Positions 3,512 to 32,827 of a DNA stretch of 34,517 bases are shown here, piece by piece. Under the pieces are notes generated by a model. That model was not told the DNA's origin, made no database searches, and worked only from the letters and a program-made list of their open reading frames with translations. Both the position numbers and the translations under genes were made by a program. The stretch lies in sequence record SRR20825006_2834, one strand, 5' to 3'. How positions within the stretch are numbered: position 1 is the stretch's first letter; every line of letters starts with the position of its first letter.

Positions 3512-3709
3512 GCGATACAACTTTATACCCTGAAAAGACTTTGGTCGGGCTCCGCTCGACCAAGGCCCCTGACCGGAGTTGCCCGCGCCGCTGCCACCGA
3601 CCGAACGCGCAGGGGCCTGAGCCGACAAGCGCTGTGCAGTTTCGCCCCTATCGCATAGGTGCCGAGCACGAGATAATTCCCTGAATATCTTCGACACAGG
3701 AGTAAAGTG

Positions 3710-7074: not shown

Positions 7075-7220
7075 GGCGCGTAGAAACCGATGGTCAAACG
7101 ACACAGGGACTGTGTTCTGCGACCCACGAAGATGCAAAAGGGTCATGGCCCTCATCCTGTAGAAACAAAGGAAAGCCAGAGCGATCCGAGAGGACCCTAA
7201 CGCCCTGACCTTGGTCCGGC

Positions 7221-9742: not shown

Positions 9743-10767
9743 GGGACCCACCTTTCACGAATGGTGCCAAGAATGCCTTTGGGGAACCACATGTTCACAA
9801 CGATGAGGATGATCCCGATGATGATCAAATAGGCGGTGGTGATGCCGCTCAGACGGTCGATGAGCATGGTCATGATGCCGGTGCCCAAAAGCGGACCCAA
9901 AAGCGTGCCGGGACCACCGACGAGAGTGAACAAAAGCGCCTCGATCGAGTAGTGAAACCCAGCAAAGGCCGAGCCAATATAGCCAAACATCAGGGCGTAG
10001 AGCGCACCGGCAAGACCACAAACGGTGCCCGACAGGGTAAAGGCCGCGAGGCGCACGCGGTAGGTGTCAAAGCCCAACATCTGGGTGCGCGGTTCGTTTT
10101 CGCGCACGGCGGTGAACAGGCGGCCAAGTGGGCCTTGGGTCACGAAGAAGAAGAAAATCAGCACCACGGCAAAGATACCGAACGCCAGATTGAAGCGCAC
10201 CACATCCGAGGTCATGTCGAAATTGGCCCCGAGCAAGGAGAAGGAACGCGCATCGGTCGGCAGGGTCAGGCCCTGATCACCGCCTGTGATTTTCGAGAAG
10301 TAGAGCGTTGCCAAATAGGCCGCCTGGGCGAACATCAAGGTGACGATCATAAAGGACACGCCCTCGGTGCGCAGCGCCAAAAGCCCGATGACAAAGGAGA
10401 ACACCAAAGAGGCGGCAATCGCGATGACAAAGGACACGGGCAGAGAAGTGCCGAAATAGTAGCTCGACAACCCGGCCGCATAGAGCCCAAAACCAAAGAA
10501 CATCGCATGTCCGAGGCTCAGGAGACCCGTGTAGCCCATCAACATATTATATCCCATGGCGAAGATCGACATGATCAAAATACGCGTCAAAGCGAGAATC
10601 AAATAGTCACTCAAGGCAAACTGCAACACGAAAATCACGAAAAGCGTGGCGAGGGACAGGGCAAGTAGCCTGCCGTTGTGGATGATCATGAAGCGATCCC
10701 TCCCTTTCTTCGCCTCAGCCGCTTTCGCGGCCTTGACAGAGGAAATTTCTGTGGAGTGCAGGCTCAT
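9730..10767 (-). CDS. ABC transporter permease (LivM-like)
   Basis: GYTGLLSLGHAMFFG, TGGDQGL, AVRENE, GGPGTLLGP. Confidence 0.92.
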   Translation of the reverse strand: MSLHSTEISSVKAAKAAEAKKGRDRFMIIHNGRLLALSLATLFVIFVLQFALSDYLILALTRILIMSIFAMGYNMLMGYTGLLSLGHAMFFGFGLYAAGLSSYYFGTSLPVSFVIAIAASLVFSFVIGLLALRTEGVSFMIVTLMFAQAAYLATLYFSKITGGDQGLTLPTDARSFSLLGANFDMTSDVVRFNLAFGIFAVVLIFFFFVTQGPLGRLFTAVRENEPRTQMLGFDTYRVRLAAFTLSGTVCGLAGALYALMFGYIGSAFAGFHYSIEALLFTLVGGPGTLLGPLLGTGIMTMLIDRLSGITTAYLIIIGIILIVVNMWFPKGILGTIRERWVPWLK

Positions 10768-11651
10768 GCGCGCGCTCCTTTTCCGGAGAACAGGCCCTGC
10801 GGTTTGAACACCAGAACGATGGCGACGAGCAGTGTCGATACGATTTTGGCCAGTGTCGGAGAGAAGAACACAGAGAGCAAACCATCCGAGAGGCCGATGA
10901 GAACGGCGGCGGCAATGGTGCCCGGAATCGAGCCCAGTCCGCCGACGATGACGACCACAAAAGACAGAAGCAGCGGATCGGTGCCCATCAGGTAGTGCGC
11001 CTGTTGGTTCGGCACGACGAGCACCCCCCCGATGGCGGCCAGCATGGCGCCAATGGCGAAGACAGCGGAGTAGACCTTGTCCACGGGAATGCCAAAATTC
11101 TGCGCCGTTTCTTTGTCAAACTGAGTGGCCCGCATCAGCAAACCGACTTTGGAGCGGCGCAGCATGAACCACAGGCCGGCGACAAGCGCCAAGGCGATCA
11201 CAATGATAAAGAGCTTGTAACTTGAATACCCAAACCAAGGCGTGCGGATCGTGTAGTAGAATGGCGCATCGACGGCGCGCGCATCGGGACCAAAGGTCAA
11301 AAGCGCGAATTGTTGGATGATATAGAGCATCCCGATCGTCGAAACGATGGTGCCCTCGGGGTTGTAATTGATGCGTTTGAGAACGGCCCAGTCGGCCAAC
11401 CAGGCAAGCCCCCCAACGAACAGCGGCGCGACCACCAAGCCGATGACAAAGCCTACAGCAGGCGGGCCCGGGATATAGACCCCACAGGCCCAGGCGATCA
11501 GCGCACCGACCATGAAGAATTCGCCGTGCGCGACGTTCACAACGCGCATCACGCCGAACACCAGCGAAAGACCAAGCGCCGTCAGCATCAAAACGGAGGC
11601 CTGAACCAGCCCTTCCAATGTGGCGAGCAAGAGATATGGAGCGATGTCCAT
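10764..11651 (-). CDS. ABC transporter permease (LivH-like)
   Basis: LGLSLVFGVMRVVNVAHGEF, GGLGSIPG, KPQGLF. Confidence 0.92.
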   Translation of the reverse strand: MDIAPYLLLATLEGLVQASVLMLTALGLSLVFGVMRVVNVAHGEFFMVGALIAWACGVYIPGPPAVGFVIGLVVAPLFVGGLAWLADWAVLKRINYNPEGTIVSTIGMLYIIQQFALLTFGPDARAVDAPFYYTIRTPWFGYSSYKLFIIVIALALVAGLWFMLRRSKVGLLMRATQFDKETAQNFGIPVDKVYSAVFAIGAMLAAIGGVLVVPNQQAHYLMGTDPLLLSFVVVIVGGLGSIPGTIAAAVLIGLSDGLLSVFFSPTLAKIVSTLLVAIVLVFKPQGLFSGKGARA

Positions 11652-11761
11652 TGTGCGTACTCCAATCGGTTCGTTCCTGCCGATGAAAGCAAACCCGTCC
11701 GATTTTTTTGAAGTTTAAGGGGCGAAGGCCGTCATGAATCAGCCTTCGCAGAGAGATGAGA

Positions 11762-13054
11762 TCAGAACGACATCTGCGTGTAGTCGGTCTCGTCCGGGTA
11801 GAGCGTTTCTTCGATCGTGGTGCGATACACCACATCGAGTTTGCCGTCCGTGACTTTGGAGATGTTCTGATGCCCGAAGGACTGGTGCGTTTTGCCGTTG
11901 AACAGCTTGTCACCCTGCGGGAACTCGTTCGATTCTTCGAAGCCGGTGATGGATTCCATCGCCTCCAAGAAGTCGATCTTTTGATCCGGGCCTTTGTAGT
12001 CGGCCTTTTCCATCGCCGCCTTCATCGCAAACAAGGTCTCCCAGACGGAGAACATATGCGCGTAGGTCGCGATGTCTTTCGGATCGCCAAGCGAAGCGCC
12101 ATTGGAATCCACGCCAACTTTTTCGCGGAAGAACTTGTCAAACTCGGATTGATTTGCCTGTGCATAGCGCGGCATGGCCTCCCAGAAGTAGGTGCCTTCG
12201 AGGTACTCAAGCTGTGGAATATTCATATCCACACCTTCGAGACTGTCGATAAAGCCAAAGATTTCCGGGCGGTTCCTGCCAAGATGCTCGCCCAGTTCTT
12301 TCACAAAGGTCAGAACAGCCGGGCCCACCATCACGTGATAGATCGCTTCGGTGTTGAACGGAATTTTTGGCATGTAGCGGGTAAAGGAGGTCTCGGTCGG
12401 CGGAATCGCGATCGATGCCACAACTTCACCACCCTGCGCTTCAATCGCGGCAGTCATGTTGTCGCGATGATCATAGCCAAAGTTGAAATCCGGGTAGATC
12501 AGGGTGATTTTCTTGCCCAGATTGTTGGAAATCCACGGTGCCATCGAGACGACTTGGCTTTTCACATCGGTGATCGAGGGCTGAAAACAATAGCGGCTGA
12601 AGGCGCCAGACGCGAGAGTGTGCGCCTCGGAGCAAAGGAAATACGGCATTTTCAATTCGCCCGCGCGCGGCGCCGTGGCAGCGACGACGTGGGAATAGAG
12701 GTGACCGAAAACTGCGTCGACTCTGTGTTCGGTTGCGAATTTCTCCATCACCTCCACGCCACGCTTCGGGTCGGTACCATCATCCTCAACGATCATTTCG
12801 ACCGGCATACCGTTGATGCCGCCCTGTTCGTTGATCAATTGAAGGGCGGCGTTTGCTGTGCGTTCATACCAGCGCCCATAAGAGGCACCGATGCCGGTGC
12901 GGTGGAACGGGGCTCCGAGGCGAATAGCGTCGCCGGACTGTGCATGCGCGCGACCAATGAGGCCGGGCGCTGACAGTAAAAGCCCAGCCCCGGCAACACC
13001 GCGCAGCAGCGAACGGCGGGATAGGGAAGATTGGGAAACGATGTCCTTCTTCAT
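11762..13054 (-). CDS. ABC substrate-binding protein (Liv/periplasmic binding type 1) with Tat signal
   Basis: ATG 13054 has RBS CAGGAG. Twin-arginine SRRSLL and AHA-Q cleavage site; INEQGGINGMPVEMIVEDD. Confidence 0.9.
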   Translation of the reverse strand: MKKDIVSQSSLSRRSLLRGVAGAGLLLSAPGLIGRAHAQSGDAIRLGAPFHRTGIGASYGRWYERTANAALQLINEQGGINGMPVEMIVEDDGTDPKRGVEVMEKFATEHRVDAVFGHLYSHVVAATAPRAGELKMPYFLCSEAHTLASGAFSRYCFQPSITDVKSQVVSMAPWISNNLGKKITLIYPDFNFGYDHRDNMTAAIEAQGGEVVASIAIPPTETSFTRYMPKIPFNTEAIYHVMVGPAVLTFVKELGEHLGRNRPEIFGFIDSLEGVDMNIPQLEYLEGTYFWEAMPRYAQANQSEFDKFFREKVGVDSNGASLGDPKDIATYAHMFSVWETLFAMKAAMEKADYKGPDQKIDFLEAMESITGFEESNEFPQGDKLFNGKTHQSFGHQNISKVTDGKLDVVYRTTIEETLYPDETDYTQMSF

Positions 13055-13184
13055 AGTGCGCTCCTGTTGGATATGTACATCACTTGGCCAATTGAGACTG
13101 GCTGTGTTTTTGTTCGTATAACAACGATCTCTAAGCAAACTGATTCAGACAAGTAAAAATTACGGTTGCCTGTAAATAAATTAT

Positions 13185-13196
13185 TCAGTCGACTAA
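13185..13196. promoter_or_regulatory. Palindromic site TCAGTCGACTAA (flanked by AATTAT/TAATT), candidate operator of the ABC operon
   Basis: Near-perfect inverted repeat about 130 bp upstream of the SBP start, with the same TTAGT-NN-ACTAA pattern as the nicC site. Confidence 0.55.
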
Positions 13197-13249
13197 TAAT
13201 TGGGCGAAATTGCCCCATATGTGGCTACAATTCACCCAGGCTCCCGCTT

Positions 13250-13502
13250 GACGTCTGCTTCTGCGGCCTGCAAAGCCACTGGCGGTGCAGCAGCAACGAG
13301 AACACCAATGGTTTGCGCCGACAATGCTTCCGCACAGAAACGGAGCTCGATCAGCATCACACAGACGAATGGAATGCGGTTGCCCATGCCCTGAACACGC
13401 GACCACGCAAAACACGCGGCTGGCGAACACCAGCAGAAGTACTCGACCAACTGCTCAAACTGGATATGATCAATGGTGCTGCGACAACCGGTTGAATCTG
13501 CT
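13250..13502 (+). mobile_element. Degenerate IS30-family transposase 3' remnant with probable right end
   Basis: FCGLQSHWRCSSNENTNGLRRQCF...LNTRPRKTRGWRTPAEVL resembles the IS30 C-terminus (FCDP.SPWQRGSNENTNGLLRQYF...LN.RPRKTLGW.TP). It ends in GTTGAATCTGC. Confidence 0.85.
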
Positions 13503-13524
13503 TTGCCCGCTGCGATCGTTGAGG

Positions 13525-13580
13525 ATGGCCAGGTCGCGTTTCATCCGGTCGCTGACAGCCCAACCGATGACGCGCCGGTG
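13525..13580 (-). mobile_element. Short IS3-family transposase fragment
   Basis: RRVIGWAVSDRMKRDLAI matches the rve core segment of IS3-family transposases. Confidence 0.7.
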
Positions 13581-13614
13581 GATTCCATCGGCAGTCTCTC
13601 GGGACAATCGCCGT

Positions 13615-13646
13615 TCCGAAGCCACGGAACACACTGTGGCTTCGGA
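13615..13646 (-). terminator. Strong hairpin downstream of the RidA gene
   Basis: TCCGAAGCCAC-N10-GTGGCTTCGGA, about 27 bp after the stop. No clear U-tract. Confidence 0.5.
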
Positions 13647-13672
13647 GGTTGTCATAGACTTGACGCGTCAGA

Positions 13673-14164
13673 TCAAGGACGGACAGCCGTCACTTCAAGT
13701 TCGACAAGAAAGCCCGGATTTGCCAAAGCATCGACAACCAGAGCAGACCGCACAGGAAGGTTTGGCTGGTCTTCAGTGCCAAAGAACTGCGTATAGCCGT
13801 CCATAAAGCCGCTAAAATCCACCAGTTTGTCGTCCTCAGCCACAAGGAAAGCCTGCATCTTGATGACATCGCCCATGCTCATATCCAGCGACTCCAAAGT
13901 GGCCTGAATGCGGTTCAGCACGGAGACGGTTTGCTCTTCCATTGTGCCATAGGCCGCGATGGTGCCCTTTTCCGCGTCTGCGTTCAACACACCCGGGACA
14001 GTGCCCGAGAGGTAAACCGTGGTCGCAGTCGCAGGAACTTCCACCGCCTGAAGGATCGGAAAGGTCGAGTTCGGCAGCGGGTGACGCACAGGCTCCTCTG
14101 CAAGAACAGGCACGGCCAAGCTGGACAGAACCAAAGCGGGGAGCAGAGATTTAATGGACAACAT
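13673..14164 (-). CDS. RidA/YjgF family imine deaminase with Sec signal peptide
   Basis: VYLSG, EQTVSVL, DVIKMQAFL, PVRS (catalytic Arg) and LVELEVTA. N-terminus MLSIKSLLPALVLSSLAVPVLA-EE; RBS AAGGA. Confidence 0.9.
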   Translation of the reverse strand: MLSIKSLLPALVLSSLAVPVLAEEPVRHPLPNSTFPILQAVEVPATATTVYLSGTVPGVLNADAEKGTIAAYGTMEEQTVSVLNRIQATLESLDMSMGDVIKMQAFLVAEDDKLVDFSGFMDGYTQFFGTEDQPNLPVRSALVVDALANPGFLVELEVTAVRP

Positions 14165-14225
14165 GTTATATTCCTTTTGAATGTAGGGAGAGAGGACGCC
14201 GGGCGATCACCCGGCGCCAGAAGGT

Positions 14226-14630
14226 TCAGCGGCTCGCCGCAACCAGATCGCTTGTGGCGGGATCTTCGACGTAGCTATTGCCAAAGCTCGTGCGAATGTA
14301 GTTTACGACCTCGGCAATTTGTGCGTCATCAAGTTGGCCACCCAAAGCGGGCATGGCACGCAACCCGTTGAGCACGACGTGGGTGGGGTAGTCCGCGAAT
14401 TCGAGGTTGTGATTTCCCGCCAAGGCCGGATACATCCCCGCCCCTTGCGCGCCCTTGCCGTCAGGCATGTGGCACGCTGCACAGACCGCGCGGTAGATAT
14501 CTTCACCTCCACGTTGATCCAACTTAGCCGGGTTCTCAAACCAGCTAGAAGTGTCAGGACGGACCTCGTCGGCCCAAAGCGGCACAGCAAAAACTGAGAC
14601 GGCAAGGGCAGCCATAAATATATGCTTCAT
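14226..14630 (-). CDS. Periplasmic monoheme cytochrome c
   Basis: Signal peptide ending LWA-DE, CAACH, distal Met in AMPA, VVNYIRTSFGN. RBS CAGGAG. Confidence 0.92.
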   Translation of the reverse strand: MKHIFMAALAVSVFAVPLWADEVRPDTSSWFENPAKLDQRGGEDIYRAVCAACHMPDGKGAQGAGMYPALAGNHNLEFADYPTHVVLNGLRAMPALGGQLDDAQIAEVVNYIRTSFGNSYVEDPATSDLVAASR

Positions 14631-14647
14631 AGATGTCTCTCCTGTTC

Positions 14648-16234
14648 TCAGTTTTCGATGATTGTGGCGTGCAGGCGTTTGATGGCATCGAGAGCAGACA
14701 AAATCGCCCCTTCCTGCCACGCCGGGAGGTAGGAAATATGTTCGCCTGCCATCAATGTGCGTCCGTCCATTTTCGTCGCCTCCATGTAGTCGGCCTCGCG
14801 GTCATTCCACAGGCCGAAACAGCCGAGCGTCCATGGCACGCGGTGCCAACCAACGCCTACGCCGGTCTTGAACTCTTCGGTGTATTGCGGGTGGATCTGC
14901 GCCCCATATTCCAAGGCTTTGGCCACCCGTTCAGAAGGCGGCAAGGCGTTGAACTGATAAGAATACGCGCCCCAGCTATAGGCCGCCAAAAGCACAGCGG
15001 GGCCATCGCTGAAATATCCCGTAGACGGGTAAGAGATTTGCGAGATCGGCAAGTTGGTGTAGCTGATCCCACCATAGATGTGCTCGTCTTGCTCCCAAAA
15101 CCGCCGCTTGAACTCCAAACCAACCTTGGTCGAAGAGGCGTAGGGCATGGTCGAAATGATATGAGACATCCGCGCAGAAAAATCATGATCAATCTGCCCC
15201 AAAACGGAGAAGGGAATGGTGCAGATACAGTAATCTGCACTTTCCACCACCGCGGCCCCTGCCCCATCTGACGGCACCCATGTGACATCGACGCCGTCGT
15301 CGGTGTTGCGAATTTTCACAACCTTGGCGTTGTAGGTGATCAGGTCTTTGATCTGTTTTTCAAAGCCCTGCGCAATCATGTCCATGCCACCCTTAGGTTG
15401 GAACATGGTCGTCTGCATGTGCAGGTGCAGACCGCCCGTGAGGCTCTTCCACAAATCGGAATTGAGAATGGTGGACAAATCATGCGGCTCGGACGGGATG
15501 GGTTCACCGTCGGCACCGCCGCCTTCTGCCTTGGACCAACCGCGATGGGACGACGAGTCCTCGCCTGTGACATAGGCCGCGTTTTCATCCAGGGCGCCAT
15601 AGCGTTTCAAGGCCGAGACAAGGATTTTCGCATCTTCGGCGCTGACCAGCCCATCCAGTTTGCCCTGATCCGCAACCTTGGCCAAAAGTTCGCTGACACC
15701 GCCTCTGAAATCGGCGTCAATTTCTTTGAACCGCTGCGGTTTACCCTCAAAGGCTTCGGTGTTGTGGACATAGGCGTTGTAGTTGACCTGAATGAACGGC
15801 TCCAGCTCCACGCCAAACCGTTTCGCATAATCAAGCACCGCGAAGTGGTCGCTTGGGATGCGCCAAGGACCGGGATTGAGGTAGTTGCCGTCCTCAAACT
15901 CAACCTTTTGCTCAAATCCCCCAAGCTCCGTGTAAGTGTCGCCCCCACGCAGTGTCCAGCATCGCCCGCCAGCCTTTTCACGGTATTCGAGAACCTTCAC
16001 CTCATAGCCAGCATTCCGCAACTCGAACGCCGCAGTCATACCGGCAAGACCAGCCCCAAGGACCAAAATTCGCGTGCCTTTCGGCGCGCCGCTCAACTCC
16101 GGTCGACTTGCCCAATTGGAGGATTGAGCCAACCCCATTTCAGTCATAGCGCTATACATGACCGCGCTGCCAGCAACAGTGCCAATCATGCCGAGCAATG
16201 ACCGGCGGGACATCCCTTGTGCATTAAAAGTCAT
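14648..16234 (-). CDS. Flavin amine oxidase family protein (L-amino-acid oxidase/dehydrogenase-like), Tat-exported
   Basis: SRRSLL twin-arginine signal, VLGAGLAG, E....GGRCWT, NPGPWRIP, GGMDMI, AGEHISYLPAWQEGA. Confidence 0.92.
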   Translation of the reverse strand: MTFNAQGMSRRSLLGMIGTVAGSAVMYSAMTEMGLAQSSNWASRPELSGAPKGTRILVLGAGLAGMTAAFELRNAGYEVKVLEYREKAGGRCWTLRGGDTYTELGGFEQKVEFEDGNYLNPGPWRIPSDHFAVLDYAKRFGVELEPFIQVNYNAYVHNTEAFEGKPQRFKEIDADFRGGVSELLAKVADQGKLDGLVSAEDAKILVSALKRYGALDENAAYVTGEDSSSHRGWSKAEGGGADGEPIPSEPHDLSTILNSDLWKSLTGGLHLHMQTTMFQPKGGMDMIAQGFEKQIKDLITYNAKVVKIRNTDDGVDVTWVPSDGAGAAVVESADYCICTIPFSVLGQIDHDFSARMSHIISTMPYASSTKVGLEFKRRFWEQDEHIYGGISYTNLPISQISYPSTGYFSDGPAVLLAAYSWGAYSYQFNALPPSERVAKALEYGAQIHPQYTEEFKTGVGVGWHRVPWTLGCFGLWNDREADYMEATKMDGRTLMAGEHISYLPAWQEGAILSALDAIKRLHATIIEN

Positions 16235-16282
16235 TGAAAATCCTATGTTTTATTGCCTTTCATGCTGACTTCAGCAGTCAAC

Positions 16283-16296
16283 ATGCAGTACTGTAC
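16283..16296. promoter_or_regulatory. Candidate TetR operator ATGCAGTACTGTAC
   Basis: 12/14 match to the palindrome core at 20431-20444, about 50 bp upstream of the amine oxidase ATG. Confidence 0.6.
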
Positions 16297-16672
16297 TTTA
16301 GCCATTCTGCAGCGCGTCCATGCAAGTCTGACGTAATCAAAATGAGAAAAGCAAAAATGCAAGGGAGGGATGACGAACAGAAAGTAATCACAGGTGCTAA
16401 AAATGGCATCGAAGTGCAAAATCAGTTCCGCTCGAAGCAGGCGTAGTCTCAGTGCTTTCGTCGATCAGCAGGACCACGTTGCGCGGTCGAGTGTGATATA
16501 TTGTGAGAGCCGGGATTTGTCTTTTTGCACACAGCGCTGGGGCGCGCCGTGTCCTACAATGGACACTGCGGGACTGCGGGCGGCACGGCGGCAGCTTTTC
16601 ATCAGGGGCGCAGTGAAGATAAGCCATAGCGGCCAGTCTCACTGTGAAGCGATCACCGGGGTGATCCAACCC

Positions 16673-17479
16673 TCAAAGCACGCGCGACAGAAATTCCCGT
16701 GTCCGAGGCGATTGCGGGTCGCTGATCATCTCTCGCGGATTGCCGCGTTCGACAATTTGGCCTTGGTCCATGAACACAAGCTGATCCCCGATTTCACGGG
16801 CAAAAGCGATTTCGTGGGTCACGACAACCATCGTCATCCCGCTCTCGGCGAGGTCGCGCATCGCGCCAAGAACCTCCCCCACGAGTTCAGGATCGAGCGC
16901 CGATGTCGGCTCATCGAACAGCAGGACTTTCGGTTTCATCGCCAGAGCGCGGGCAATGGCGACACGTTGCTGTTGACCGCCAGACAGTTGGCGCGGATAG
17001 GCGGCCTCTTTGTCGGACAGACCGACACGGGCCAGCAGGGCGGCGGCTTCTTCCTTCGCCTGTTCCACATGCGTGCCCCGCACCTGAACCGGGGCTTGGA
17101 TCAGATTTTCCATCACCGTCATATGTGAGAACAGATTGAACGATTGGAAAAGCATGCCAATTTCCGCACGGCGACGGCACAATTGGTTTTCCCTCAATTC
17201 GTAGAGCTTATCCCCCACCAAATCGTAGCCGACGAAATCCCCATCAACGAGAATAATACCACCCGTGAGCTTTTCGAGGTGGTTCATACAGCGCAGGAAG
17301 GTGCTTTTTCCTGACCCGGACGGGCCGATGATACAGGCGACCGACCCCTTTGGCACATCAAGATCGACGCCTTTAAGAACCTCTAATGCACCGAATGTCT
17401 TGCGGACATTGCGCGCAAAGATCATCGACTCAGCGGGCACACCAAACCGATCTGCGTTCATCTTGCGCGCTTCAGACAT
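16673..17479 (-). CDS. Polar amino-acid ABC transporter ATP-binding protein
   Basis: [43 protein letters not shown]. The start at 17479 overlaps the permease stop. Confidence 0.93.
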
Positions 17480-18443
17480 TGTCGCGTTCCTTTTTCCGCC
17501 CCAAGAAGAGACCGCGCGACACAATAGACAGCAGAGCCTCCGGCTCGTGACCACTGTCGCTACGACCAAAATATCGTTCGATGTAAAACTGGCCGACGGA
17601 CATAATGCTGACCACAGCAAGATACCAAACAGCGACGACAATCAGCAGCGGGATGGTTTCAAAAGTTCGCGCATAAATGCTTTGAGCCGAATAGAACAGA
17701 TCATCGACGGCAATGAAGGTCACGAGGGATGTCATTTTCAATAGGTTGATCGCCTCATTTCCGGTCGGCGGAACGACAAACCGCATCGCTTGCGGCAGAA
17801 TGATTTGTCTTAGAATTTTGCGATATGGCATGCCGAGCGCTCGGGCGGCCTCCGCTTGACCAGACGGCACGGATTTGATGCCTGCCCGGATGATCTCGGC
17901 CATATAGCCCGCCTCACAGAGGGCGAGCGCCACCACCGCCGAGAAAAACGGCGTCATGAAATCATTGGTGCGCACAGAGAAGACCTCGCCAAAAACCGGC
18001 AAGTTCAGAGACACTTCACGGACCAAAAGAGACAGGTTGAACCAAAAGATCAATTGGATGAGCGACGGAACCCCGCGAAAAAACCAGACATAAACACCGG
18101 CGAAGGTTCGTAGAATTGGGCTTGGCGACACGCGCATGATTGCAACCGCGGTGCCAATCAGCGTGGCGGCCGACATGATCAAAACGGTGAGCAACAACGT
18201 GTTGCCGAGGCCACGCAGGATCGACGGATGGAACATGTAGCCCCAGGCTGTGCCCCAAGCGAAAGCCGGGTTGCTGGCGAAGGCTTTGAGGATCAGCGCC
18301 GCAAGGACCAACACCACCACAGTGCCGATCCAGATCGCGTAATTGCGCCTTGGAACCACGGTCAGTGCGTCCACCCCATGGATTTGGGTCTTTTGTCCCT
18401 GTGCGTCTGGCTGAGCCGGTCTGGTCACCACCTGTGCCCTCAT
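17472..18443 (-). CDS. Polar amino-acid ABC transporter permease
   Basis: [27 protein letters not shown]...[11 protein letters not shown] (EAA loop), ILPQAMR. Confidence 0.93.
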
Positions 18444-18490
18444 TTGGTAGATATGTGGACACCCGACCAGACGGGCCGGGTGTTATGGCC

Positions 18491-19342
18491 TTATTCCGCG
18501 CGCAAATCGTCCATGCTGTCGACGCGATACGGCGCGTCAATGGCGTAGGCTCCCATGCCATAGGACTCAAGGATGCCTTGATACGTGCCGTTTTCGAACA
18601 GGGTTTCAAGCGCACTGACCATCATCTCGGCTGTTGCGCTATCGCCTTTGCTCACCGCCAAGCCAAGCGGTGAAACGTTATAGAGCGTGGGCAAGACGAC
18701 AAGTTGTCCCTTGCTGGTCACTTCGAAATAGCTCGACGCGGTTGCGTCATCCATCCGGGCGTCCACCCGGTCGGACATGACCGCCTGAACAATATCGGTT
18801 GAAGAATTGAACACGGATTTGTCGATCGGTTCCAGATCGTTGTCCGCACAGGTCACATTCAATTCGTCCACAAGGAAATCAGAGGCACTGCCAGCCGACA
18901 CGCCAACGCGTTTGCCGCACAAAGGATGATCCCCGGAGAACGTGTCCACCAGACTCGGCAGCGTTGACGCGGCAACACCTGCCTTCAGGAACATCACAAA
19001 TTCAACCTGTTTGAGGCGATCCGGTGTCGCCGAGAAGGTTTCCCACGCGATGTCAAACCGGCCTGCGGCGAGACCGGGGATCATCGAGGGAAACGGCGTG
19101 CGCTGAATGTCAAGTTCTGCACCGACCAAGTCCGCAACCTCTTCTGCAAGCTCAATGATGATCCCGGTCTGTTCACCGGTCTCATCGAGGTATTCGAAAG
19201 GCGCGAAATCAAGCGTGTTGGCCACCGACAGCAATCCACTTTCACGAACGGAATCACTGGGGGTCACCGTCTGAGAAAAGCTCGGCGTGGCCGCAAGGGC
19301 GAGGGCCACAAAGGCGGCCGCCGTGAGTGTTGTATCGTTCAT
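18491..19342 (-). CDS. Polar amino-acid ABC substrate-binding protein (family 3)
   Basis: Signal peptide ending SFS-QT; FAPFEY, FPSMIPGLAAGRFDI, LCGKRVGV. ATG 19342 has RBS GGAGA. Confidence 0.9.
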   Translation of the reverse strand: MNDTTLTAAAFVALALAATPSFSQTVTPSDSVRESGLLSVANTLDFAPFEYLDETGEQTGIIIELAEEVADLVGAELDIQRTPFPSMIPGLAAGRFDIAWETFSATPDRLKQVEFVMFLKAGVAASTLPSLVDTFSGDHPLCGKRVGVSAGSASDFLVDELNVTCADNDLEPIDKSVFNSSTDIVQAVMSDRVDARMDDATASSYFEVTSKGQLVVLPTLYNVSPLGLAVSKGDSATAEMMVSALETLFENGTYQGILESYGMGAYAIDAPYRVDSMDDLRAE

Positions 19343-19409
19343 CTCTTTCTCCATGTTGTGCGTGATGGAGGCGGCCAATTGGGCCGCTCCGGCGGGTGCG
19401 GCTGTTGGT

Positions 19410-20405
19410 TCAGCTCGCTTTTTTTCTATAATGGTAATTTTTGTCGATCCGTTCCATCAGGTAGTCGCCATAGCGCACGGGACCTGACTTTGGCGTTTCT
19501 CCGGTCGGGACGCAGGCCTCAATCGTTTCGATCATCGCGTCCATCGACGGGTCAAAGAAGAAGGGTTGCGAATAGCGCTCCCGGCCTGAGTAATTCACCA
19601 CTCTGTGCGGCGTCGAGACAAACCGATGGTTCGACCAACGCGCAAGAATGTCTCCGACGTTCATCACGAAAGCATTCGGGATCGGCGGGGCCGCGATCCA
19701 CTCATCGTCTTTATTCTTGACCTCAAGCCCGCCGACATCGTCCTGCGCCAGAAGCGTGATAAAGCCATAATCCGTGTGCGGGGCCGAGCCGAACAGCCCC
19801 TCTTCTTTGGGCTGTGTCGGATAATGCAGCAACCGCAGAAAAATTGTCGGGTCTTCGAAATGAGCATCAAGACTGTCCTCAGGCAGCCCAAGCGACAGGG
19901 CAATGGCCCCCACCATCTTGCGGGCCAGCGTGCTCATGCCGTCGACATAGTGCTCAATGGTCGGGCGAAAGTTTGGTAGCAGGTCCTCTGTCGGCCATTG
20001 ATTTGGCCCCTGCAAAGGCTCCCCCGCAAGACAACGCGGGTCGGTCTCATCGACTTCGTGCATGAAAAAGAGGGACTCGCTTTGATTGGGCTTGCTGACG
20101 GCTTCCACCGATGAGGTCACGATGGTTGACCCGGCAAAGGGCAAATATCCCCGAAAGTTCTTGTCAATTTTGACGTCAAGTTTCTGCTCTTCAGGCAAAG
20201 CAAAAAAGGCCTTGCTTGCCTCGCGCACCGCTTCGACGCTTTGTGCCGCGACCTGATGCCCGACCACATAGAGAAAGCCGATATTCTCAAGATAATCGCA
20301 CAACTGCGCTGCGGTTGCGGCAATTTTTTCGCGGTCCGTCCCGTAAAGCGGCGCAACGTCCAGCACCGGAATTTCGGAAAAATCCCCACGATCATTGGTG
20401 TTCAT
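19410..20405 (-). CDS. Isopenicillin-N-synthase-family 2OG-Fe(II) oxygenase
   Basis: IPVLDV, GFLYVVGH, RGY, LRLLHYP, HTDYG (HxD), STPHRV (H), RYS (RxS). Confidence 0.92.
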   Translation of the reverse strand: MNTNDRGDFSEIPVLDVAPLYGTDREKIAATAAQLCDYLENIGFLYVVGHQVAAQSVEAVREASKAFFALPEEQKLDVKIDKNFRGYLPFAGSTIVTSSVEAVSKPNQSESLFFMHEVDETDPRCLAGEPLQGPNQWPTEDLLPNFRPTIEHYVDGMSTLARKMVGAIALSLGLPEDSLDAHFEDPTIFLRLLHYPTQPKEEGLFGSAPHTDYGFITLLAQDDVGGLEVKNKDDEWIAAPPIPNAFVMNVGDILARWSNHRFVSTPHRVVNYSGRERYSQPFFFDPSMDAMIETIEACVPTGETPKSGPVRYGDYLMERIDKNYHYRKKAS

Positions 20406-20429
20406 TTTCGAGCCCCCACTTGAACATAC

Positions 20430-20445
20430 AATACAGTACTGTATT
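20430..20445. promoter_or_regulatory. Perfect 16-bp palindrome AATACAGTACTGTATT, candidate TetR operator in a divergent promoter
   Basis: Lies in the 97-bp gap between the oxygenase and nucleoside hydrolase starts. Confidence 0.75.
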
Positions 20446-20502
20446 TCTACATATCAAAGCGCAGTCGGCAATAGATAATCAGAAAAAAGGACTCATCGGA
20501 TC

Positions 20503-21447
20503 ATGGCAGCCAGAAAAATAATCATTGATACCGATCCCGGTCAGGACGACGCCTTCGCGATCCTCTTTGCTCTGGGCTCCCCCGAAGAGCTTGACGTCAT
20601 CGGCATCACCACAGTTGGCGGAAACGTCCCTTTGGCCCGCACAACGACAAATGCTTTGAAAGTTCTGGAACTTGCACAACGCCCTGACATTCCAGTCTAT
20701 GCGGGCTGCCCTGGGCCGACCGTACGCAAACTGATCACGGCGGAGAATATCCACGGCGAAACGGGGTTGGATGGTGCCGATTTGCCGGAACCCACAACGG
20801 CCGCGCAATCCGAACATGCGGTCAACTATCTGGTCCGGACCATCATGGCAGCCCCCGAAGGCGAGCTGACGGTCTGCACGCTTGGGCCGATGACCAATCT
20901 TGCAATGGCGATGACCATGGAGCCGCGTATCATTCCCCGGATTCGCGAAGTCGTGTCGATGGGCGGCGGGTTCTTTGAAGGCGGCAATGCGACGCCTGCC
21001 GCCGAGTTCAACATCTTTGTTGACCCACATGCTGCCCATAAGGTGTACGCCTCCGGTGTGCCGATCACGATGGCGGGTATCGACTGTACCTATACGGCGC
21101 AGATGACCCCCGGTTGGATCAACAGCTTGCGTGACACGGGTAGCCGCACCGCGACTGAGGCCGCGAACTTGGCCGATTTTTTTCGTATTTATGGCAGCCA
21201 TAAGTTCCCGACAGAGGCCAGACCGATCCATGACGCTTGCATCACCGGTTACTTGTTAAAGCCTGAGATTTTCGAGCAACGCCAATGCCATGTGACGGTC
21301 GACATTTCCTCTCCCGTCACCATCGGCATGACGGTCGTCGATTGGTGGCATGTCACGTGCCAAGAGCGCAATTGCAACGTGCTGCGCCGGATTGATCCTG
21401 AACCGTTCTTTGCCCTTATGGCGGAGCGCATTGGCAGCCTGCCGTAA
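20503..21447 (+). CDS. Nucleoside hydrolase (inosine-uridine preferring family)
   Basis: DTDPGQDD, GGNV, IHGETGLDG, LGPMTNLA, GNATPAAEFNIFVDPHAA, PIHD. Confidence 0.94.
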   Translation: MAARKIIIDTDPGQDDAFAILFALGSPEELDVIGITTVGGNVPLARTTTNALKVLELAQRPDIPVYAGCPGPTVRKLITAENIHGETGLDGADLPEPTTAAQSEHAVNYLVRTIMAAPEGELTVCTLGPMTNLAMAMTMEPRIIPRIREVVSMGGGFFEGGNATPAAEFNIFVDPHAAHKVYASGVPITMAGIDCTYTAQMTPGWINSLRDTGSRTATEAANLADFFRIYGSHKFPTEARPIHDACITGYLLKPEIFEQRQCHVTVDISSPVTIGMTVVDWWHVTCQERNCNVLRRIDPEPFFALMAERIGSLP

Positions 21448-21545
21448 TCCTTCGCGCAGCGATAAAACGCGGTTCCCCCTGTGGGAGGCACAATACCTTG
21501 TGCCCCGCTTGGCCATCCGTATACTCCACCGCAAAGGAGAGTGAT

Positions 21546-22190
21546 GTGTCTGATCTCGATGATAGCCCCGCAGGGGAGGCCGAAGATAAGCCTCAGCGCC
21601 CGAAAGGACGCAAGACACTCTCACGCGAGGCGTGGATTGCCGCCGCTCGAGAGGCGTTCGAAACCGGCGGGATCTCCTCGGTAAAAATTGATCGGCTCGC
21701 GCGCTTGCTCCGCGTGACCCGTGGCAGTTTCTATTTTCACTTTTCAAGTTTGCAGGATCTTCACGACGGCCTCATGGATGTGTGGCGGGCTTCAAATTGC
21801 GCCCCGTTCCTAAAATTGCAGGACACCAAAGACATCGACGGTGTCCAGTTCTTTAGCGACATTGTCCATGTCTGGGTCGACGAGAACCCTTTTAGTCCGC
21901 GCCTTGACCTTGCTGTCCGGGAATGGTCTCGCAGAGATGCGACCGTCGCGCGTGAGATCAAAGACATCGACACTCTGCGCATTGATCTTTTGGTCCGGGC
22001 CTTTTTGGCCATGGGCTATTCCGATGACGAAAGCACAGTGCGGGCGCGCCTCACCTATTTCCACCAAATCGGGCAATATGCCCTGTCCTTTGAAGAAGAT
22101 CAGGACATCCGCAAGAGGTATCAGCCCATCTTTGGCGATGTGCTGCTTGGACCTTTGGTCGAACAACCAGAGCATCTTCGCGTTCTGTAG
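21546..22190 (+). CDS. TetR/AcrR family transcriptional regulator
   Basis: HTH WIAAARE...VKIDRLARLLRVTRGSFYFHF. GTG 21546 has RBS AAGGAG. Confidence 0.9.
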   Translation: MSDLDDSPAGEAEDKPQRPKGRKTLSREAWIAAAREAFETGGISSVKIDRLARLLRVTRGSFYFHFSSLQDLHDGLMDVWRASNCAPFLKLQDTKDIDGVQFFSDIVHVWVDENPFSPRLDLAVREWSRRDATVAREIKDIDTLRIDLLVRAFLAMGYSDDESTVRARLTYFHQIGQYALSFEEDQDIRKRYQPIFGDVLLGPLVEQPEHLRVL

Positions 22191-22395
22191 ACCGGAGCCT
22201 CTTCGAGGGTGCGCTAACCCTGAGAGCGTTGCAAACTTCATGCGTCTGATCGTTTCATTCGTCTGTCTCCTCAATCCGTCATACTGATCGCAGTAGGCGA
22301 CGGACCCGCACGAGAGCCGCAGGGCGTGCAGGTTGTGGTTGTCAACGGCGGCGGCTCGCAATGCCAAGCCAGAATGTTCAGAACCACACCTGCAG

Positions 22396-22434
22396 GGCAA
22401 AAGAGCTGTTGGCCGGTGCAGCAGCTCTTTTGCC
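22396..22434. terminator. Probable bidirectional terminator between tetR and lysR
   Basis: GGCAAAAGAGCTG(TTG)...(CAG)CAGCTCTTTTGCC inverted repeat. Confidence 0.7.
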
Positions 22435-22471
22435 GTCACCCAAAAAGCGCCAAAAATGGCGACAGACGGAA

Positions 22472-23371
22472 TCACATTTTAGGCATTGATTTATCAAATG
22501 CTTCGCGCAGGCGTTTGGCAGCAGGGCTGAGACCCCGGCCTGCGTTCCAAGCGATGCCGACATCCATGGACGGGATGGATTTGGCCAGATCAATCCTCTC
22601 CACCCTTCGCCCGTCCAGTGTCCAAGGGCGGTAGACAACATCGCTCAGGATCGCAACGGCTTGACCGGTGGCGACAAAACTGCGCACGGCCTCAACGGAG
22701 GTGGAGGTCAATTTGATGTCAGGATGGCCGGTTTCTTCTGTCCAATGTGCCAAGCCCTGTTTTTCGGCATCATCTGAATGCAAGACGGCGTAGGGGTATT
22801 TGGCAACATCAGCCAACGTCACCTTCGCCTGTTTTGTCAGCGGGTGATCCAGGCTGGTCCACAGGCGTCGCTGTGACTTATGAAACGTCTTACTTTTCAA
22901 ACCAATGTCAGATGTCAAATTCGAGGTGAGGATCAAAGCCAAGTCGAGCTGGCCATCAACAAGCGCCTGTTCCAGGATCTCTCTAGGTTGCTCTGTGAGT
23001 TGGACGTCGACCTGAGGATGCTGGCGGGTGAAATGTTCTATGACAGGAAAGGCGAAATAGCTTGAAAGCGTCCAACTCATTCCGAGACGCACATGACCCG
23101 AAATCGTATCGCTATCAGCTTCTACACTTTTGACGGCCGCCTCGAAGGACGCGACAATATCATGTGCGTGGTGCCTGAATTTTTGTCCGGCCCGGGTCAA
23201 CCTCAGACCTGTTGGCAAACGCTCAAACAATGCCGTACCAAGAAAAGCTTCCATGTCCTTGATCGAAAGTGTCACGGCCGATTGCGATACGTTCAAGGCG
23301 CGCGCTGCCGCCGACACTTGGCCCGCCTCGGCCACCCCAAGAAAGTACCTAATCTGACGATGCGTGAGCAT
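22472..23371 (-). CDS. LysR family transcriptional regulator
   Basis: RQIRYF...AARALNVSQSAVTLSIKDME...LFER...LTRAG HTH; 299 aa. Confidence 0.94.
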   Translation of the reverse strand: MLTHRQIRYFLGVAEAGQVSAAARALNVSQSAVTLSIKDMEAFLGTALFERLPTGLRLTRAGQKFRHHAHDIVASFEAAVKSVEADSDTISGHVRLGMSWTLSSYFAFPVIEHFTRQHPQVDVQLTEQPREILEQALVDGQLDLALILTSNLTSDIGLKSKTFHKSQRRLWTSLDHPLTKQAKVTLADVAKYPYAVLHSDDAEKQGLAHWTEETGHPDIKLTSTSVEAVRSFVATGQAVAILSDVVYRPWTLDGRRVERIDLAKSIPSMDVGIAWNAGRGLSPAAKRLREAFDKSMPKM

Positions 23372-23463
23372 ATAAGTTTTTCCAATATGATCTATTTTAA
23401 GTCTGAATTTTCAATATTAAGGACGCCATGTCAATCTGAAGGTCAGTTGTTTGGTGACCCGAT

Positions 23464-23763
23464 ATGAAACATGAAAAAATCCCCTCTACCCCCTCCGGAA
23501 CGCTGATTCTGGACTTGAGTGACGAACAGATCGAAACCCGTGCTTTCAGCACCCTTGAGGCAAAACAAGCGGCGTGGGAGAAAGCGCGGGCCGATGCCGT
23601 TGTGATTTTCCGACATCCTGAAAATTGCTCATTCTATCAACGTTTGGCCACATGGTGGTATCTGCGCAAACGCCGATCGCAGCCTGTTGCTTACGACCAA
23701 GGCGGCGACGCCATGGCTGAGCCCATTTGGCAGGGGCATTGGGCGAGCACAAAGTACTTGTGA
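23464..23763 (+). CDS. Small hypothetical protein divergent from lysR
   Basis: 99-aa ATG ORF in the usual LysR-target position. Weak RBS and no recognisable motif. Confidence 0.45.
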   Translation: MKHEKIPSTPSGTLILDLSDEQIETRAFSTLEAKQAAWEKARADAVVIFRHPENCSFYQRLATWWYLRKRRSQPVAYDQGGDAMAEPIWQGHWASTKYL

Positions 23764-25342: not shown

Positions 25343-26389
25343 TTAGCCCTCTTTCCGCCAATAACCTGAGAAATAGCTCTGCTCGGGACCGATCCCAAGC
25401 GTCTCCCGAAAATGTTTGCGGGCGCGCTGAACCTGAAACTTTTCCGCTCCGCACCATATGAACGGCATCGGGTCGACAGGCCCATCACCATAGAGCGCAA
25501 ACAGCGTGTCCACAGGCCCAAGATCCCTGCCACGCATGAGCCATGTCACCGTAATGCCTTCGGGCTTGATGAGATCCTGAATATCCTCCGCCCCGTCCAC
25601 TTCGATATAAGCCTGCCCGGCCACTTCCGGCGCGGCCTCCGCCAAAATACGCCGGATCGCGGGCAGTGCGGTTTCGTCACCGACCAGAGTCAGGACCTTG
25701 GCCTGCGGCATCTGCCCTCCCCCCGGTCCCATCATGCCAATCGTGTCACCGACCTGCGCCCCACGCACCCATTCAGTGATCCGGCCACCGTCATGGATGA
25801 ACACATCAAAGGCAAAAATTCCGGTCGCCACATCAATCGACACAAAGGTGTAAACCGGATTGTGGAGCTGATCCTCGCCGGTCGGAAACCGGGTGCGGCC
25901 CGTCGCGTCGATCGCCGGCCAAACCGGGCTGCGCCACTGTGGTGGCAACAACAGACGAAAATGCATCGCACCGCTGGCGAAATGCGCCATGTTGTCGGCC
26001 TTAAGCGTCACGCGATAAAAATGCGGGAAAGGCTGTGTCACCTCCACCACTTCCGCCAGACGAAAATTCGCTGGCGGACCTTGATCCGGCAAGGTGCCGG
26101 ACCATTCGAATTGGGCCAAAAGGTCCGGGTCGGCGTGATCGACAATATGAAGAATCTGATCGCGCAGCATGAACAATGTGTTGGCATCCTTGGCCGAGAG
26201 GGTGATTTTGATTGCCCCCTCCTCGCCCAGAATTTCGAACTGCCCGCGGTCCGTTGCGCCACTCATCCACGCCTCATTGCGCCTTAACTCACATCCGTGT
26301 TCGGACAATTGCAGGGCGATTTTATCAAAGCGGGGCACGGCAAATGCGCCAGCGGCAAGGCCATAGCAGGTTGCAGATGTCTCGGTCAT
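25343..26389 (-). CDS. Siderophore-interacting protein (ViuB-like ferric reductase) with N-terminal extension
   Basis: HFRLLLPP, PVYT, DVFIHDGG, GPGG, LVGDETALPAIRRIL, YIEV, SGYWR. Confidence 0.9.
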   Translation of the reverse strand: MTETSATCYGLAAGAFAVPRFDKIALQLSEHGCELRRNEAWMSGATDRGQFEILGEEGAIKITLSAKDANTLFMLRDQILHIVDHADPDLLAQFEWSGTLPDQGPPANFRLAEVVEVTQPFPHFYRVTLKADNMAHFASGAMHFRLLLPPQWRSPVWPAIDATGRTRFPTGEDQLHNPVYTFVSIDVATGIFAFDVFIHDGGRITEWVRGAQVGDTIGMMGPGGGQMPQAKVLTLVGDETALPAIRRILAEAAPEVAGQAYIEVDGAEDIQDLIKPEGITVTWLMRGRDLGPVDTLFALYGDGPVDPMPFIWCGAEKFQVQRARKHFRETLGIGPEQSYFSGYWRKEG

Positions 26390-29136: not shown

Positions 29137-29147
29137 GCTACAAACGC

Positions 29148-32781: not shown

Positions 32782-32827
32782 CCATAAACGAGCAGAACCA
32801 CATCAAAAGGAGCACGACCAACAGCCC

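Follow-up and report, generated by a model that had tools for sequence, protein, structure and literature searches.

Gene content of the locus

The 34,517-nucleotide (nt) stretch of DNA in sequence record SRR20825006_2834, hereafter ‘the window’, carries at positions 13,673 to 22,190 a block of nine genes in which enzymes of amino-acid and nucleoside chemistry stand side by side (Table 1). Six of the genes encode a TetR-family regulator, an IU/CU-type ribonucleoside hydrolase (IUNH) and, divergently, a 2-oxoglutarate (2OG)-Fe(II) oxygenase from the family of isopenicillin N synthase (IPNS), followed by the binding protein, permease and ATPase of an ATP-binding cassette (ABC) importer of the polar-amino-acid type. 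The other three encode a flavin amine oxidase, a c-type cytochrome and a RidA-family protein. A sequence-only reading had put the nine genes forward as one TetR-controlled pathway for a compound with both an α-amino-acid arm and an N-heterocycle or riboside. Our Pfam and NCBIfam scans found all nine where that reading had placed them. Comparison with other genomes showed that the first six form a conserved core, which we are highly confident is a real co-regulated unit, whereas the last three are a mobile, lineage-specific cassette and not part of the conserved unit.

The tetR gene follows the hydrolase gene immediately and in the same orientation. Two reading frames were given shorter gene models than their full open reading frames (ORFs): the ATPase start was set at the Met at 17479, residue 55 of the ORF, where orthologue alignments begin, and the cytochrome probably starts at an internal Met that precedes a hydrophobic leader.

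Table 1 Features of the nine-gene block in the window, with positions on the strand as given; scores are in bits, with thresholds after ‘vs’ where available.
Feature	Position	Strand	Evidence or remark
RidA-family protein	13673–14164	−	Pfam Ribonuc_L-PSP 60.6 bits, 1.9e-16; signal-like leader
c-type cytochrome	ORF 14226–14720; probable gene 14226–14630	−	Cytochrome_CBB3 62.5 bits, 4.7e-17
Flavin amine oxidase, L-amino-acid-oxidase-like flavoprotein	14648–16234	−	Amino_oxidase 182 bits, 3e-53; profile positions 1–438 of 443
Operator-like site ATGCAGTACTGTAC	16283–16296		48 nt upstream of oxidase start; 12/14 match to TetR palindrome
Non-coding spacer, 376 nt	16297–16672		Between importer operon and oxidase cassette
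ABC ATPase, polar-amino-acid type	ORF 16673–17641; likely gene 16673–17479	−	ABC_tran 122.6 bits
Single ABC permease	17472–18443	−	BPD_transp_1 81 bits; TIGR01726 HEQRo_perm_3TM 59.5 vs 42.2
Family-3 periplasmic binding protein (polar amino acids or opines)	18491–19378	−	SBP_bac_3 84 vs 26.4 bits
IPNS-family 2OG-Fe(II) oxygenase	19410–20405	−	DIOX_N and 2OG-FeII_Oxy; 96.9 vs 23 bits, 89.5 vs 27.3 bits
Perfect 14-bp palindrome ATACAGTACTGTAT	20431–20444		Divergent promoter region; probable TetR operator
IU/CU-type ribonucleoside hydrolase (IUNH)	20503–21447	+	IU_nuc_hydro 334.8 vs 34.2 bits, 7.7e-100; profile positions 1–296 of 297
TetR-family regulator	21498–22190	+	TetR_N 34.5 vs 24 bits; start codon uncertain

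A six-gene core conserved across genomes

The core genes occur in the same order, TetR–IUNH and, divergently, oxygenase–binding protein–permease–ATPase, in all seven named loci, of which three are plasmids of Pseudosulfitobacter pseudonitzschiae and four are genomes, two each from Mesorhizobium and Rhizobium. In the six loci scored by tblastn (the seventh, plasmid locus L050, was taken from annotation only), the core proteins are 60–84% identical to those of the window. IUNH is the most conserved protein of the set, at 80–84%; the TetR orthologues are 60–69% identical, with alignments that start at residue 30–37. A 4.3 Mb genome, G001, carries the whole block at 99% identity, and the core is also present in many metagenome contigs. 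A metagenome scan with an alignment of seven oxygenase orthologues yielded 80 loci, and a direct search of genome contigs with the oxygenase yielded 4.

In the genomes searched, the unit is rare and patchy. The oxygenase was matched at E 1e-60 or better in 54 of the 401 genomes of a class-wide sample, with a close orthologue in G001 only, and at E 1e-95 or better in 3 of the 401 genomes of an order-wide sample, G001 included. The sequence-only reading had named gene-neighbourhood analysis as a way to check its proposal, and in this comparison importer, oxygenase, hydrolase and TetR do co-occur across genomes.

A palindrome that tracks the TetR regulator

The spacer between the divergent oxygenase and hydrolase genes contains a perfect 14-bp palindrome, ATACAGTACTGTAT, which lies upstream of both starts, by 25 nt for the oxygenase and by 58 nt for the hydrolase. 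The earlier observation that both promoter regions of the block carry a common palindrome holds: the second copy, ATGCAGTACTGTAC, lies upstream of the amine oxidase gene. With one mismatch allowed, the 10-mer common to both sites, CAGTACTGTA, gives four strand-hits in the window, all at the two palindromes, against a mean of 0.29 in shuffles, none of 100 of which reached four. Exact copies of CAGTACTGTA in G001 are confined to the two palindrome sites; a reversed control pattern gave 13 hits in that genome.

The perfect 14-mer is present in the oxygenase–IUNH spacer of the window and of all seven named TetR-type loci, also where the flanks differ, and it occurs once per genome, within the cluster, in four genomes (G799–G802). 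The upstream region could be read in 38 close metagenome loci, and in 21 of them the palindrome is present with at most one mismatch; the 21 comprise every one of the 19 loci with a detected TetR, together with L089 and L136, whose contigs end before the TetR position. The other 17, in which TetR was not detected, show at least five mismatches. Because the palindrome tracks TetR across loci, we take it to be the probable TetR operator, for which this covariation is strong evidence. The regulator itself has an N-terminal TetR helix-turn-helix domain, and the palindrome lies in its own promoter region.

Every family in the block is common among alphaproteobacterial replicons of this type (repA, repB and repC, 30602–34100 on the plus strand, stand at the end of the window, which therefore belongs to a repABC-type plasmid or chromid), as might be the case if the genes were chance neighbours with no common pathway or regulator. 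That explanation is already contradicted by the conservation data, however, since order and operator are kept in Mesorhizobium, Rhizobium, Pseudosulfitobacter and many metagenomes, and the uniqueness of the palindrome in each of four other genomes argues against it as well. We regard it as highly improbable.

Persistent linkage of oxygenase and hydrolase

Linkage was counted in metagenome loci with at least 1.3 kb of sequence upstream of the oxygenase, and IUNH was scored as adjacent when it was divergent from and next to the oxygenase. An adjacent IUNH is found in 20 of the 21 loci whose oxygenase is at least 69% identical to that of the window, in 2 of 10 at 62–69% identity (3 of 10 when the distance is extended to 8 kb), in 6 of 7 at 56–62% and in none of 21 at 50–56% (3 of 21 within 8 kb). 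For distant homologues of 52% identity or less in the class-wide genome sample, IUNH was present in 0 of 12 loci. In a FastTree tree of the oxygenases, a clade of 60 rows (starred) contains most of the IUNH-linked sequences, and the presence and absence of IUNH require at least seven changes.

The pair also occurs outside the TetR-type arrangement. In a second architecture, seen in Thioclava, in genomes G776 and G506 and in metagenome loci L120 and L122–L126, IUNH and the divergent oxygenase are accompanied by a PotD-like binding protein (SBP_bac_6/8), an ATPase with a TOBE domain, two permeases and GntR as the regulator. Loci L100 and L101 have the pair without any importer. In L135, one strand encodes an M20 amidohydrolase, IUNH and the oxygenase in succession, and the opposite strand TauD and a second oxygenase; in L139 and L148, the importer operon has IUNH at its far end, with the oxygenase last; and in L102, γ-glutamyltransferase (GGT) and IUNH, beside binding protein–permease–ATPase, diverge from the oxygenase, a short-chain dehydrogenase/reductase (SDR) and a glyoxalase. 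The retention of the pair across these arrangements indicates a persistent link between oxygenase and hydrolase, with importer and regulator interchangeable, and we consider it probable that the two enzymes act in one pathway.

Two further observations concern these loci. The GntR-type loci of Thioclava, G776 and G506 (L048, L065 and L066) have a different palindrome near the oxygenase start, built around TGTATACA, which is presumably the GntR operator. L095, a TetR-type locus without the hydrolase, has a second, distant (31% identical) DIOX_N/2OG oxygenase beyond TetR (2677–3648, minus strand) and a glutathione S-transferase (GST) after the γ-lyase-like gene described below.

Hydrolase and oxygenase proteins

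The hydrolase matches IU_nuc_hydro over its full length. Its DTDPGQDD (N-terminal Asp cluster), EFN and HDA (His-Asp) segments, which we take to be the catalytic and binding ones, align with those of the solved RihA, RihB and cytidine/uridine hydrolase CU-NH. It scores below the NCBIfam equivalog cut-offs for RihA (296 vs 433 bits) and UriH (293 vs 450 bits). Most simply, it would be an ordinary ribonucleoside hydrolase.

The oxygenase scores above the Pfam gathering thresholds for both of its domains. H210, D212, H267, R277 and S279 are invariant in seven orthologues and align with the same residues of the solved structures 6jyv and 5c3p; HxD…H is the metal triad, and Arg-x-Ser binds the C5 carboxylate of 2OG (PMC4787775). 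The closest solved relatives are the reconstructed ancestor Anc357 (9ovh, E 1.4e-71) and PaIPNS (6jyv, E 2.1e-59). According to the accessible part of the report that describes them, PaIPNS is without known function and Anc357 is a computed ancestor (PMC12329707). The third solved relative is the fungal thymine-7-hydroxylase (5c3p, E 6.6e-38), with a full-length alignment, and ethylene-forming enzyme gives a partial match only (E ~1e-18 over residues 60–230).

Importer and accessory enzymes

The binding protein, permease and ATPase of the window fit the polar-amino-acid type by family (Table 1), and the importer reached no specific NCBIfam equivalog cut-off; the top NCBIfam matches of the ATPase, TcyN, GlnQ and EhuA, are all under cut-off. 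Among solved structures, the binding protein comes nearest to amino-acid binders, to which it is only distantly related (E 1e-23 at best). Its residues R121, S116, T118 and D211 are invariant in six orthologues, and R121 and D211 presumably occupy the positions that bind the α-carboxylate and α-ammonium groups in family 3.

Three unrelated, non-homologous types of enzyme that attack α-amino acids recur at the cluster. The first is the L-amino-acid-oxidase-like trio of the window. The second is a DAO-family flavoenzyme encoded between oxygenase and binding protein (L016, L017, L093, L096, L103, L104 and L106), whose best NCBIfam matches, glycine oxidase, N-methyltryptophan oxidase and sarcosine oxidase β, are all below cut-off. 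The third is a pyridoxal phosphate (PLP) enzyme of Cys/Met metabolism encoded after the ATPase (L001, L002, L050, L095, L098, L105 and L106) and closest to methionine γ-lyase, at 389 bits vs a cut-off of 550. L106 carries both the DAO and the γ-lyase-like enzyme. This recurrence fits a substrate with the amino-acid arm that the sequence-only reading had given it.

In genome G776, a true 1-aminocyclopropane-1-carboxylate (ACC) deaminase gene (TIGR01274, 549.7 vs 392 bits) is convergent with IUNH (L065, 12014–13033, minus strand); the oxygenase is in the same broad family as ACC oxidase.

A free amino acid of unusual type, γ-substituted or sulphur-containing and with no riboside, could also be the substrate, with oxygenase and importer as the real unit and IUNH as a separate salvage enzyme that is often encoded nearby, or as one that cleaves a non-nucleoside bond. 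The similarity of the PLP enzyme to methionine γ-lyase (below cut-off) and the ACC deaminase beside the cluster in G776 agree with this, as do an ATPase and a permease that match cystine, glutamine and ectoine systems best or near-best. So do the sulphur-related neighbours of several loci: L095 has GST, L102 has GGT and a glyoxalase, L118 and L135 have TauD, and L128 has a rhodanese fusion. Moreover, 8 of the 31 loci with sufficient upstream sequence whose oxygenase is at least 62% identical to that of the window are without IUNH inside 8 kb (L095, L103, L104, L106, L109, L114, L115 and L117). A free amino acid leaves unexplained, however, the adjacency of IUNH in 20 of the 21 closest loci and in 6 of 7 loci of the PotD/GntR type, across four gene arrangements, its position in TetR-type loci, where it follows the shared operator region and immediately precedes tetR on the same strand, and its rank as the most conserved protein of the set. 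We consider a free amino acid possible but unlikely.

A mobile amine oxidase cassette

The closest solved relative of the window flavoprotein is the L-amino acid oxidase 2jae (E 2.9e-81, residues 47–525), and its Amino_oxidase domain is full length. A twin-arginine motif, SRRSLL, lies at its N-terminus, and hydrophobic leaders that resemble signal sequences are present on RidA, the cytochrome (from the internal Met) and the binding protein. From these N-termini, the members of the trio are predicted to be exported and periplasmic, and they would therefore act before uptake. The RidA protein has the Pfam superfamily domain only and scores below the NCBIfam TIGR00004 cut-off (45.4 vs 106.25 bits). 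A cytochrome c gene follows the homologous flavoprotein in all four other contexts, and from this gene order the cytochrome is likely to be the electron acceptor of the flavoprotein.

Only the window, G001, L081 and L082 have the trio together with the cluster, which amounts to 2 of 40 close metagenome loci and none of the seven named loci. Flavoprotein homologues at 48–71% identity are common on plasmids. The same three genes stand alone between insertion sequence (IS) elements in Paracoccus marcusii and Sulfitobacter faviae, and a flavoprotein–cytochrome pair lies among transposases in Mesorhizobium huakuii. On plasmid pDSHI02 of Dinoroseobacter shibae (L080, 1297–8030), the flavoprotein–cytochrome c pair comes directly after coxB, ctaD and a cytochrome oxidase assembly gene, an arrangement that suggests a self-contained amino-acid-to-oxygen respiratory branch on the plasmid. 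The suggestion that the trio is part of a conserved pathway was therefore not borne out, as it is confined to the window’s lineage and elsewhere occurs without the cluster.

Its promoter region nevertheless carries the operator-like site. The site is absent upstream of four homologous cassettes elsewhere (0 of 4, best match with six mismatches), and L082, a more diverged relative, has it as ATACAGTACTGCAT, which is one base nearer the consensus, within a surrounding spacer that has diverged. Its place 48 nt from the start codon, its distance of 4.1 kb from the true operator and its conservation in the lineage make recruitment of the oxidase cassette into the TetR regulon somewhat more probable than its absence from it. 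The same site, conserved in the lineage and missing from cassettes elsewhere, would be expected if there were one nine-gene pathway, in which amine oxidase, cytochrome c and RidA were integral and converted the arm of the imported substrate to a keto acid; the trio also lies on the importer operon’s strand. Such a pathway is difficult to reconcile with the distribution of the trio given above, with the export signals on all three of its proteins and with the cassettes elsewhere that are IS-flanked or, in Dinoroseobacter, behind cytochrome oxidase genes, without the cluster, and we judge it improbable.

Proposed pathway and substrate

Taken together, these features lead us to propose, tentatively and at a little short of even confidence, that the core is a TetR-repressed uptake-and-catabolism module for an amino-acid-bearing riboside. 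TetR bound to the 14-bp palindrome would repress both the hydrolase–tetR unit and the oxygenase–importer operon as long as neither the compound nor one of its products is present. Import of the compound, which would have an α-amino-acid arm on an N-riboside, would be the task of the family-3 binding protein with its ABC partners. The oxygenase would hydroxylate the carbon next to the heteroatom that joins arm and nucleoside, and the unstable product would fall apart, by oxidative dealkylation, into an ordinary ribonucleoside and an arm-derived aldehyde; the IU-type hydrolase would then split the ribonucleoside into base and ribose. Lineage-specific accessory enzymes may add an optional attack on the opposite end of the amino-acid arm. 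In the window’s lineage, this role could fall to the exported L-amino-acid-oxidase-like dehydrogenase with its cytochrome c and RidA, a mobile cassette that has acquired an operator-like site and is probably co-induced. The order of the steps, the dealkylation chemistry and the class of substrate are what we infer from the gene content.

A modified nucleoside from RNA, 3-(3-amino-3-carboxypropyl)uridine (acp3U), illustrates such a compound. Methionine γ-lyase-type enzymes act on γ-substituted 2-aminobutyrates; a 3-amino-3-carboxypropyl arm would suit the γ-lyase-like enzyme and would give aspartate semialdehyde on oxidative dealkylation. For these reasons acp3U is a coherent candidate, but it is not singled out by the present evidence, and as the actual substrate it is rather unlikely. 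The boldest extension, to which we give a similarly low probability, would make the oxygenase an ‘eraser’ of free amino-acid-modified nucleosides, acp3U for example, that arise from RNA turnover. Hydroxylation of the base-attached carbon would yield uridine and aspartate semialdehyde, and the hydrolase would go on to produce uracil and ribose. Variants with a γ-lyase-like enzyme, DAO or periplasmic oxidase would instead free the nucleoside from the amino-acid end.

Two other substrates were rejected. Nicotianine, a pyridinium amino acid that in the sequence-only reading would have fed neighbouring nic genes, was set aside: there is no nic-specific match in the neighbourhood, which is not conserved, and other copies of the cluster have unrelated neighbours. 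In the window, the upstream genes are those of an isochorismatase-family protein, a tannase-family esterase and a flavin reductase, together with that of a generic FAD monooxygenase whose score is under every NCBIfam cut-off. S-adenosylhomocysteine and S-adenosylmethionine were likewise set aside because oxidative C–S cleavage would not give an ordinary nucleoside, and because the hydrolase retains a segment that presumably binds a free 5′-hydroxyl.

The hydrolase keeps the canonical ribonucleoside hydrolase residues, and this is also what one would expect if the substrates were sugar-modified nucleosides. The oxygenase would then repair the ribose, by 2′-hydroxylation of deoxyribonucleosides or 2′-O-methyl removal, before the strictly ribose-dependent hydrolase cleaves the product; the importers would have been recruited for nucleosides and the amino-acid enzymes would be bystanders. 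A fungal 2OG-dependent pyrimidine deoxyribonucleoside 2′-hydroxylase is known. Consistent with sugar modification, the oxygenase–IUNH pair occurs without an importer in L100 and L101, a Bmp/PnrA-type nucleoside importer lies beside the oxygenase in L132, and a SorC-type sugar-binding regulator occurs in L103. For free 2′-O-methyl nucleosides, a demethylating 2OG dioxygenase is described in the accessible part of one report (PMC12709175), but this enzyme is from a different family, PhyH. Both importer families of the cluster, moreover, are typical of amino acids or amines rather than nucleosides, amino-acid-deaminating enzymes lie inside the operon in at least 14 loci, and distant members of the oxygenase family adjoin amino-acid-type importers, amidohydrolases and TauD. 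Sugar-modified nucleosides therefore appear an unlikely, though not far-fetched, alternative.

Several observations weigh against an amino-acid-bearing riboside handled by oxygenase and hydrolase together. IUNH is found in only 3 of the 10 loci in the 62–69% identity band, and the hydrolase thus seems dispensable for some close relatives, including the eight IUNH-less loci listed above; in L156, a flavin amine oxidase occupies the usual IUNH position. The metagenome loci are not independent, as the 93 rows of the oxygenase tree represent 82 distinct sequences, many of them near-duplicates. The PotD-like importer of the second architecture is by family not an amino-acid binder, and the trio, being exported, cannot act on a compound once it has been imported into the cytoplasm. 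In the second palindrome copy there are two mismatches, and G001 contains two further two-mismatch sites, both within ORFs, with 8 per strand for the reversed control; against this background, the second site alone is no proof of TetR control. No close homologue of the oxygenase has a known function. Finally, identity with thymine-7-hydroxylase was rejected, as the uracil-contacting Asn87 of that enzyme aligns with Phe84 and its Glu122 with a non-acidic residue.

Surroundings of the block

A complete branched-chain/urea-type ABC importer (8295–13138, minus strand) adjoins the block. Its parts are a binding protein (Peripla_BP_6), two permeases (BPD_transp_2) and two ATPases, and other genomes do not have it beside the cluster as a conserved neighbour. 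Next to this importer, an ORF at 7094–8257 (minus strand) joins an N-terminal GMC oxidoreductase fragment (choline-dehydrogenase-like, residues 24–184) to a C-terminal aldehyde dehydrogenase fragment (profile 301–379) and looks like the deletion remnant of a betA/betB-like pair. A 489-residue ORF at 5686–7155 (minus strand) has no Pfam or NCBIfam match, appears strongly hydrophobic judged from the DNA and is probably an uncharacterized membrane protein; its hydrophobicity would explain an AT skew of 0.44 at 6001–7000. On the other side of the block, a siderophore-uptake set at 25343–30119 (minus strand), made up of a SIP-type reductase, an ATPase, two FecCD-type permeases and a binding protein, precedes the repABC genes.

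The relatives L081 and L082 show partial conservation of the spacer between importer operon and oxidase cassette. The sole long ORF of this spacer (16394–17128, plus strand) has no Pfam match, an Rfam search of 13000–23500 at E up to 0.1 gave no match there or elsewhere in that range, and a promoter and terminator scan of the spacer found one weak terminator-like hairpin, not above shuffles. A look-up in the ESM Atlas returned generic family names only. Positions 13000–23000 were also compared with two marine RNA runs, one possible RNA run and one DNA run. Contigs of the two marine RNA libraries overlap the RidA, cytochrome, oxidase, ATPase/permease, binding protein, oxygenase, TetR and LysR genes; these are short contigs for which DNA carry-over is possible and gaps are uninformative, and we draw no inference from them on expression or operon structure.

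Comparison with known systems

Fungal thymine-7-hydroxylase is a 2OG oxygenase that acts on a free pyrimidine in a thymidine salvage route, and that route also uses a nucleoside hydrolase. Equivalents of its Arg190, Tyr217 and Phe292 are present in the window oxygenase; they are also present in PaIPNS and hence are not specific. Unlike the fungal route, the clusters have shown no iso-orotate decarboxylase-like gene. Among enzymes of modified nucleosides, FJS and PHYHD1 are 2OG-dependent 2′-O-methyl nucleoside demethylases of the PhyH family that act on free modified nucleosides, and in the accessible part of their report they resemble our proposal in the oxidative removal of a group from a free nucleoside to leave an ordinary one (PMC12709175). 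They differ in family, PhyH as against the DIOX_N/2OG-FeII_Oxy of the window oxygenase, and FJS, by the same part of that report, was isolated on an insert of ~1.2 kb, which gives no gene context (PMC12709175). The closest relatives, PaIPNS and Anc357 of the bacterial ‘isopenicillin N synthase family oxygenase’ clade, have the same fold family, metal triad and 2OG motif as the window oxygenase; the accessible part of their report gives a substrate for neither and describes no link to a nucleoside hydrolase (PMC12329707).

NicA2 and Pnao are amine-oxidase-family dehydrogenases rather than oxidases, according to the accessible part of the source (PMC9396064). As far as that source goes, NicA2 or Pnao with CycN in Pseudomonas putida S16 is a counterpart of the window trio, a flavin enzyme of the amine oxidase family with a dedicated c-type cytochrome. 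The window likewise has the cytochrome gene adjacent to that of the flavoprotein and export leaders on both proteins; its flavoprotein, by contrast, is closest to the L-amino acid oxidase 2jae and not to the nicotine enzymes, and RidA is added. By analogy, this suggests that the trio flavoprotein may be a periplasmic dehydrogenase that feeds the respiratory chain and not an H2O2-forming oxidase. Rhizobial opine and Amadori-compound operons are a further point of comparison, because the DAO-bearing variants (L016, L017 and others) likewise combine a family-3 importer with a DAO flavoenzyme, and a deoxyfructosyl-amino-acid binding protein is among the distant solved relatives of the window binding protein, though weakly (E ~3e-10). 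To our knowledge, a nucleoside hydrolase and an IPNS-family oxygenase are not part of such operons.

A literature search, with most subscription journals outside its coverage, found no pathway that pairs an IPNS-family oxygenase with a nucleoside hydrolase and no catabolic route for acp3U. All of the component families are ordinary, and TetR-controlled catabolic operons are common; what is new is the conserved tie between an orphan clade of IPNS-family oxygenases and a nucleoside hydrolase, with an invariant operator and with modular exchange of importers, regulators and amino-acid enzymes. Bacterial IPNS-family oxygenases, the crystallized PaIPNS included, have no assigned function, and one clade of them is now tied by gene order to a ribonucleoside hydrolase. 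That this tie to the hydrolase and to amine- or amino-acid-type importers spans four arrangements and two regulator types leaves a short list of substrates for the orphan family, and the conserved 14-bp operator offers a ready biosensor in the search for the inducer. If the substrate is a modified nucleoside, soil and marine bacteria would have a route to regain carbon and nitrogen from RNA breakdown products that ordinary salvage cannot use. Should the oxygenase prove to be an eraser of the kind outlined above, the module would be the first dedicated bacterial route for import and catabolism of a hypermodified nucleoside, and this bacterial clade of IPNS-family oxygenases would gain its first function.

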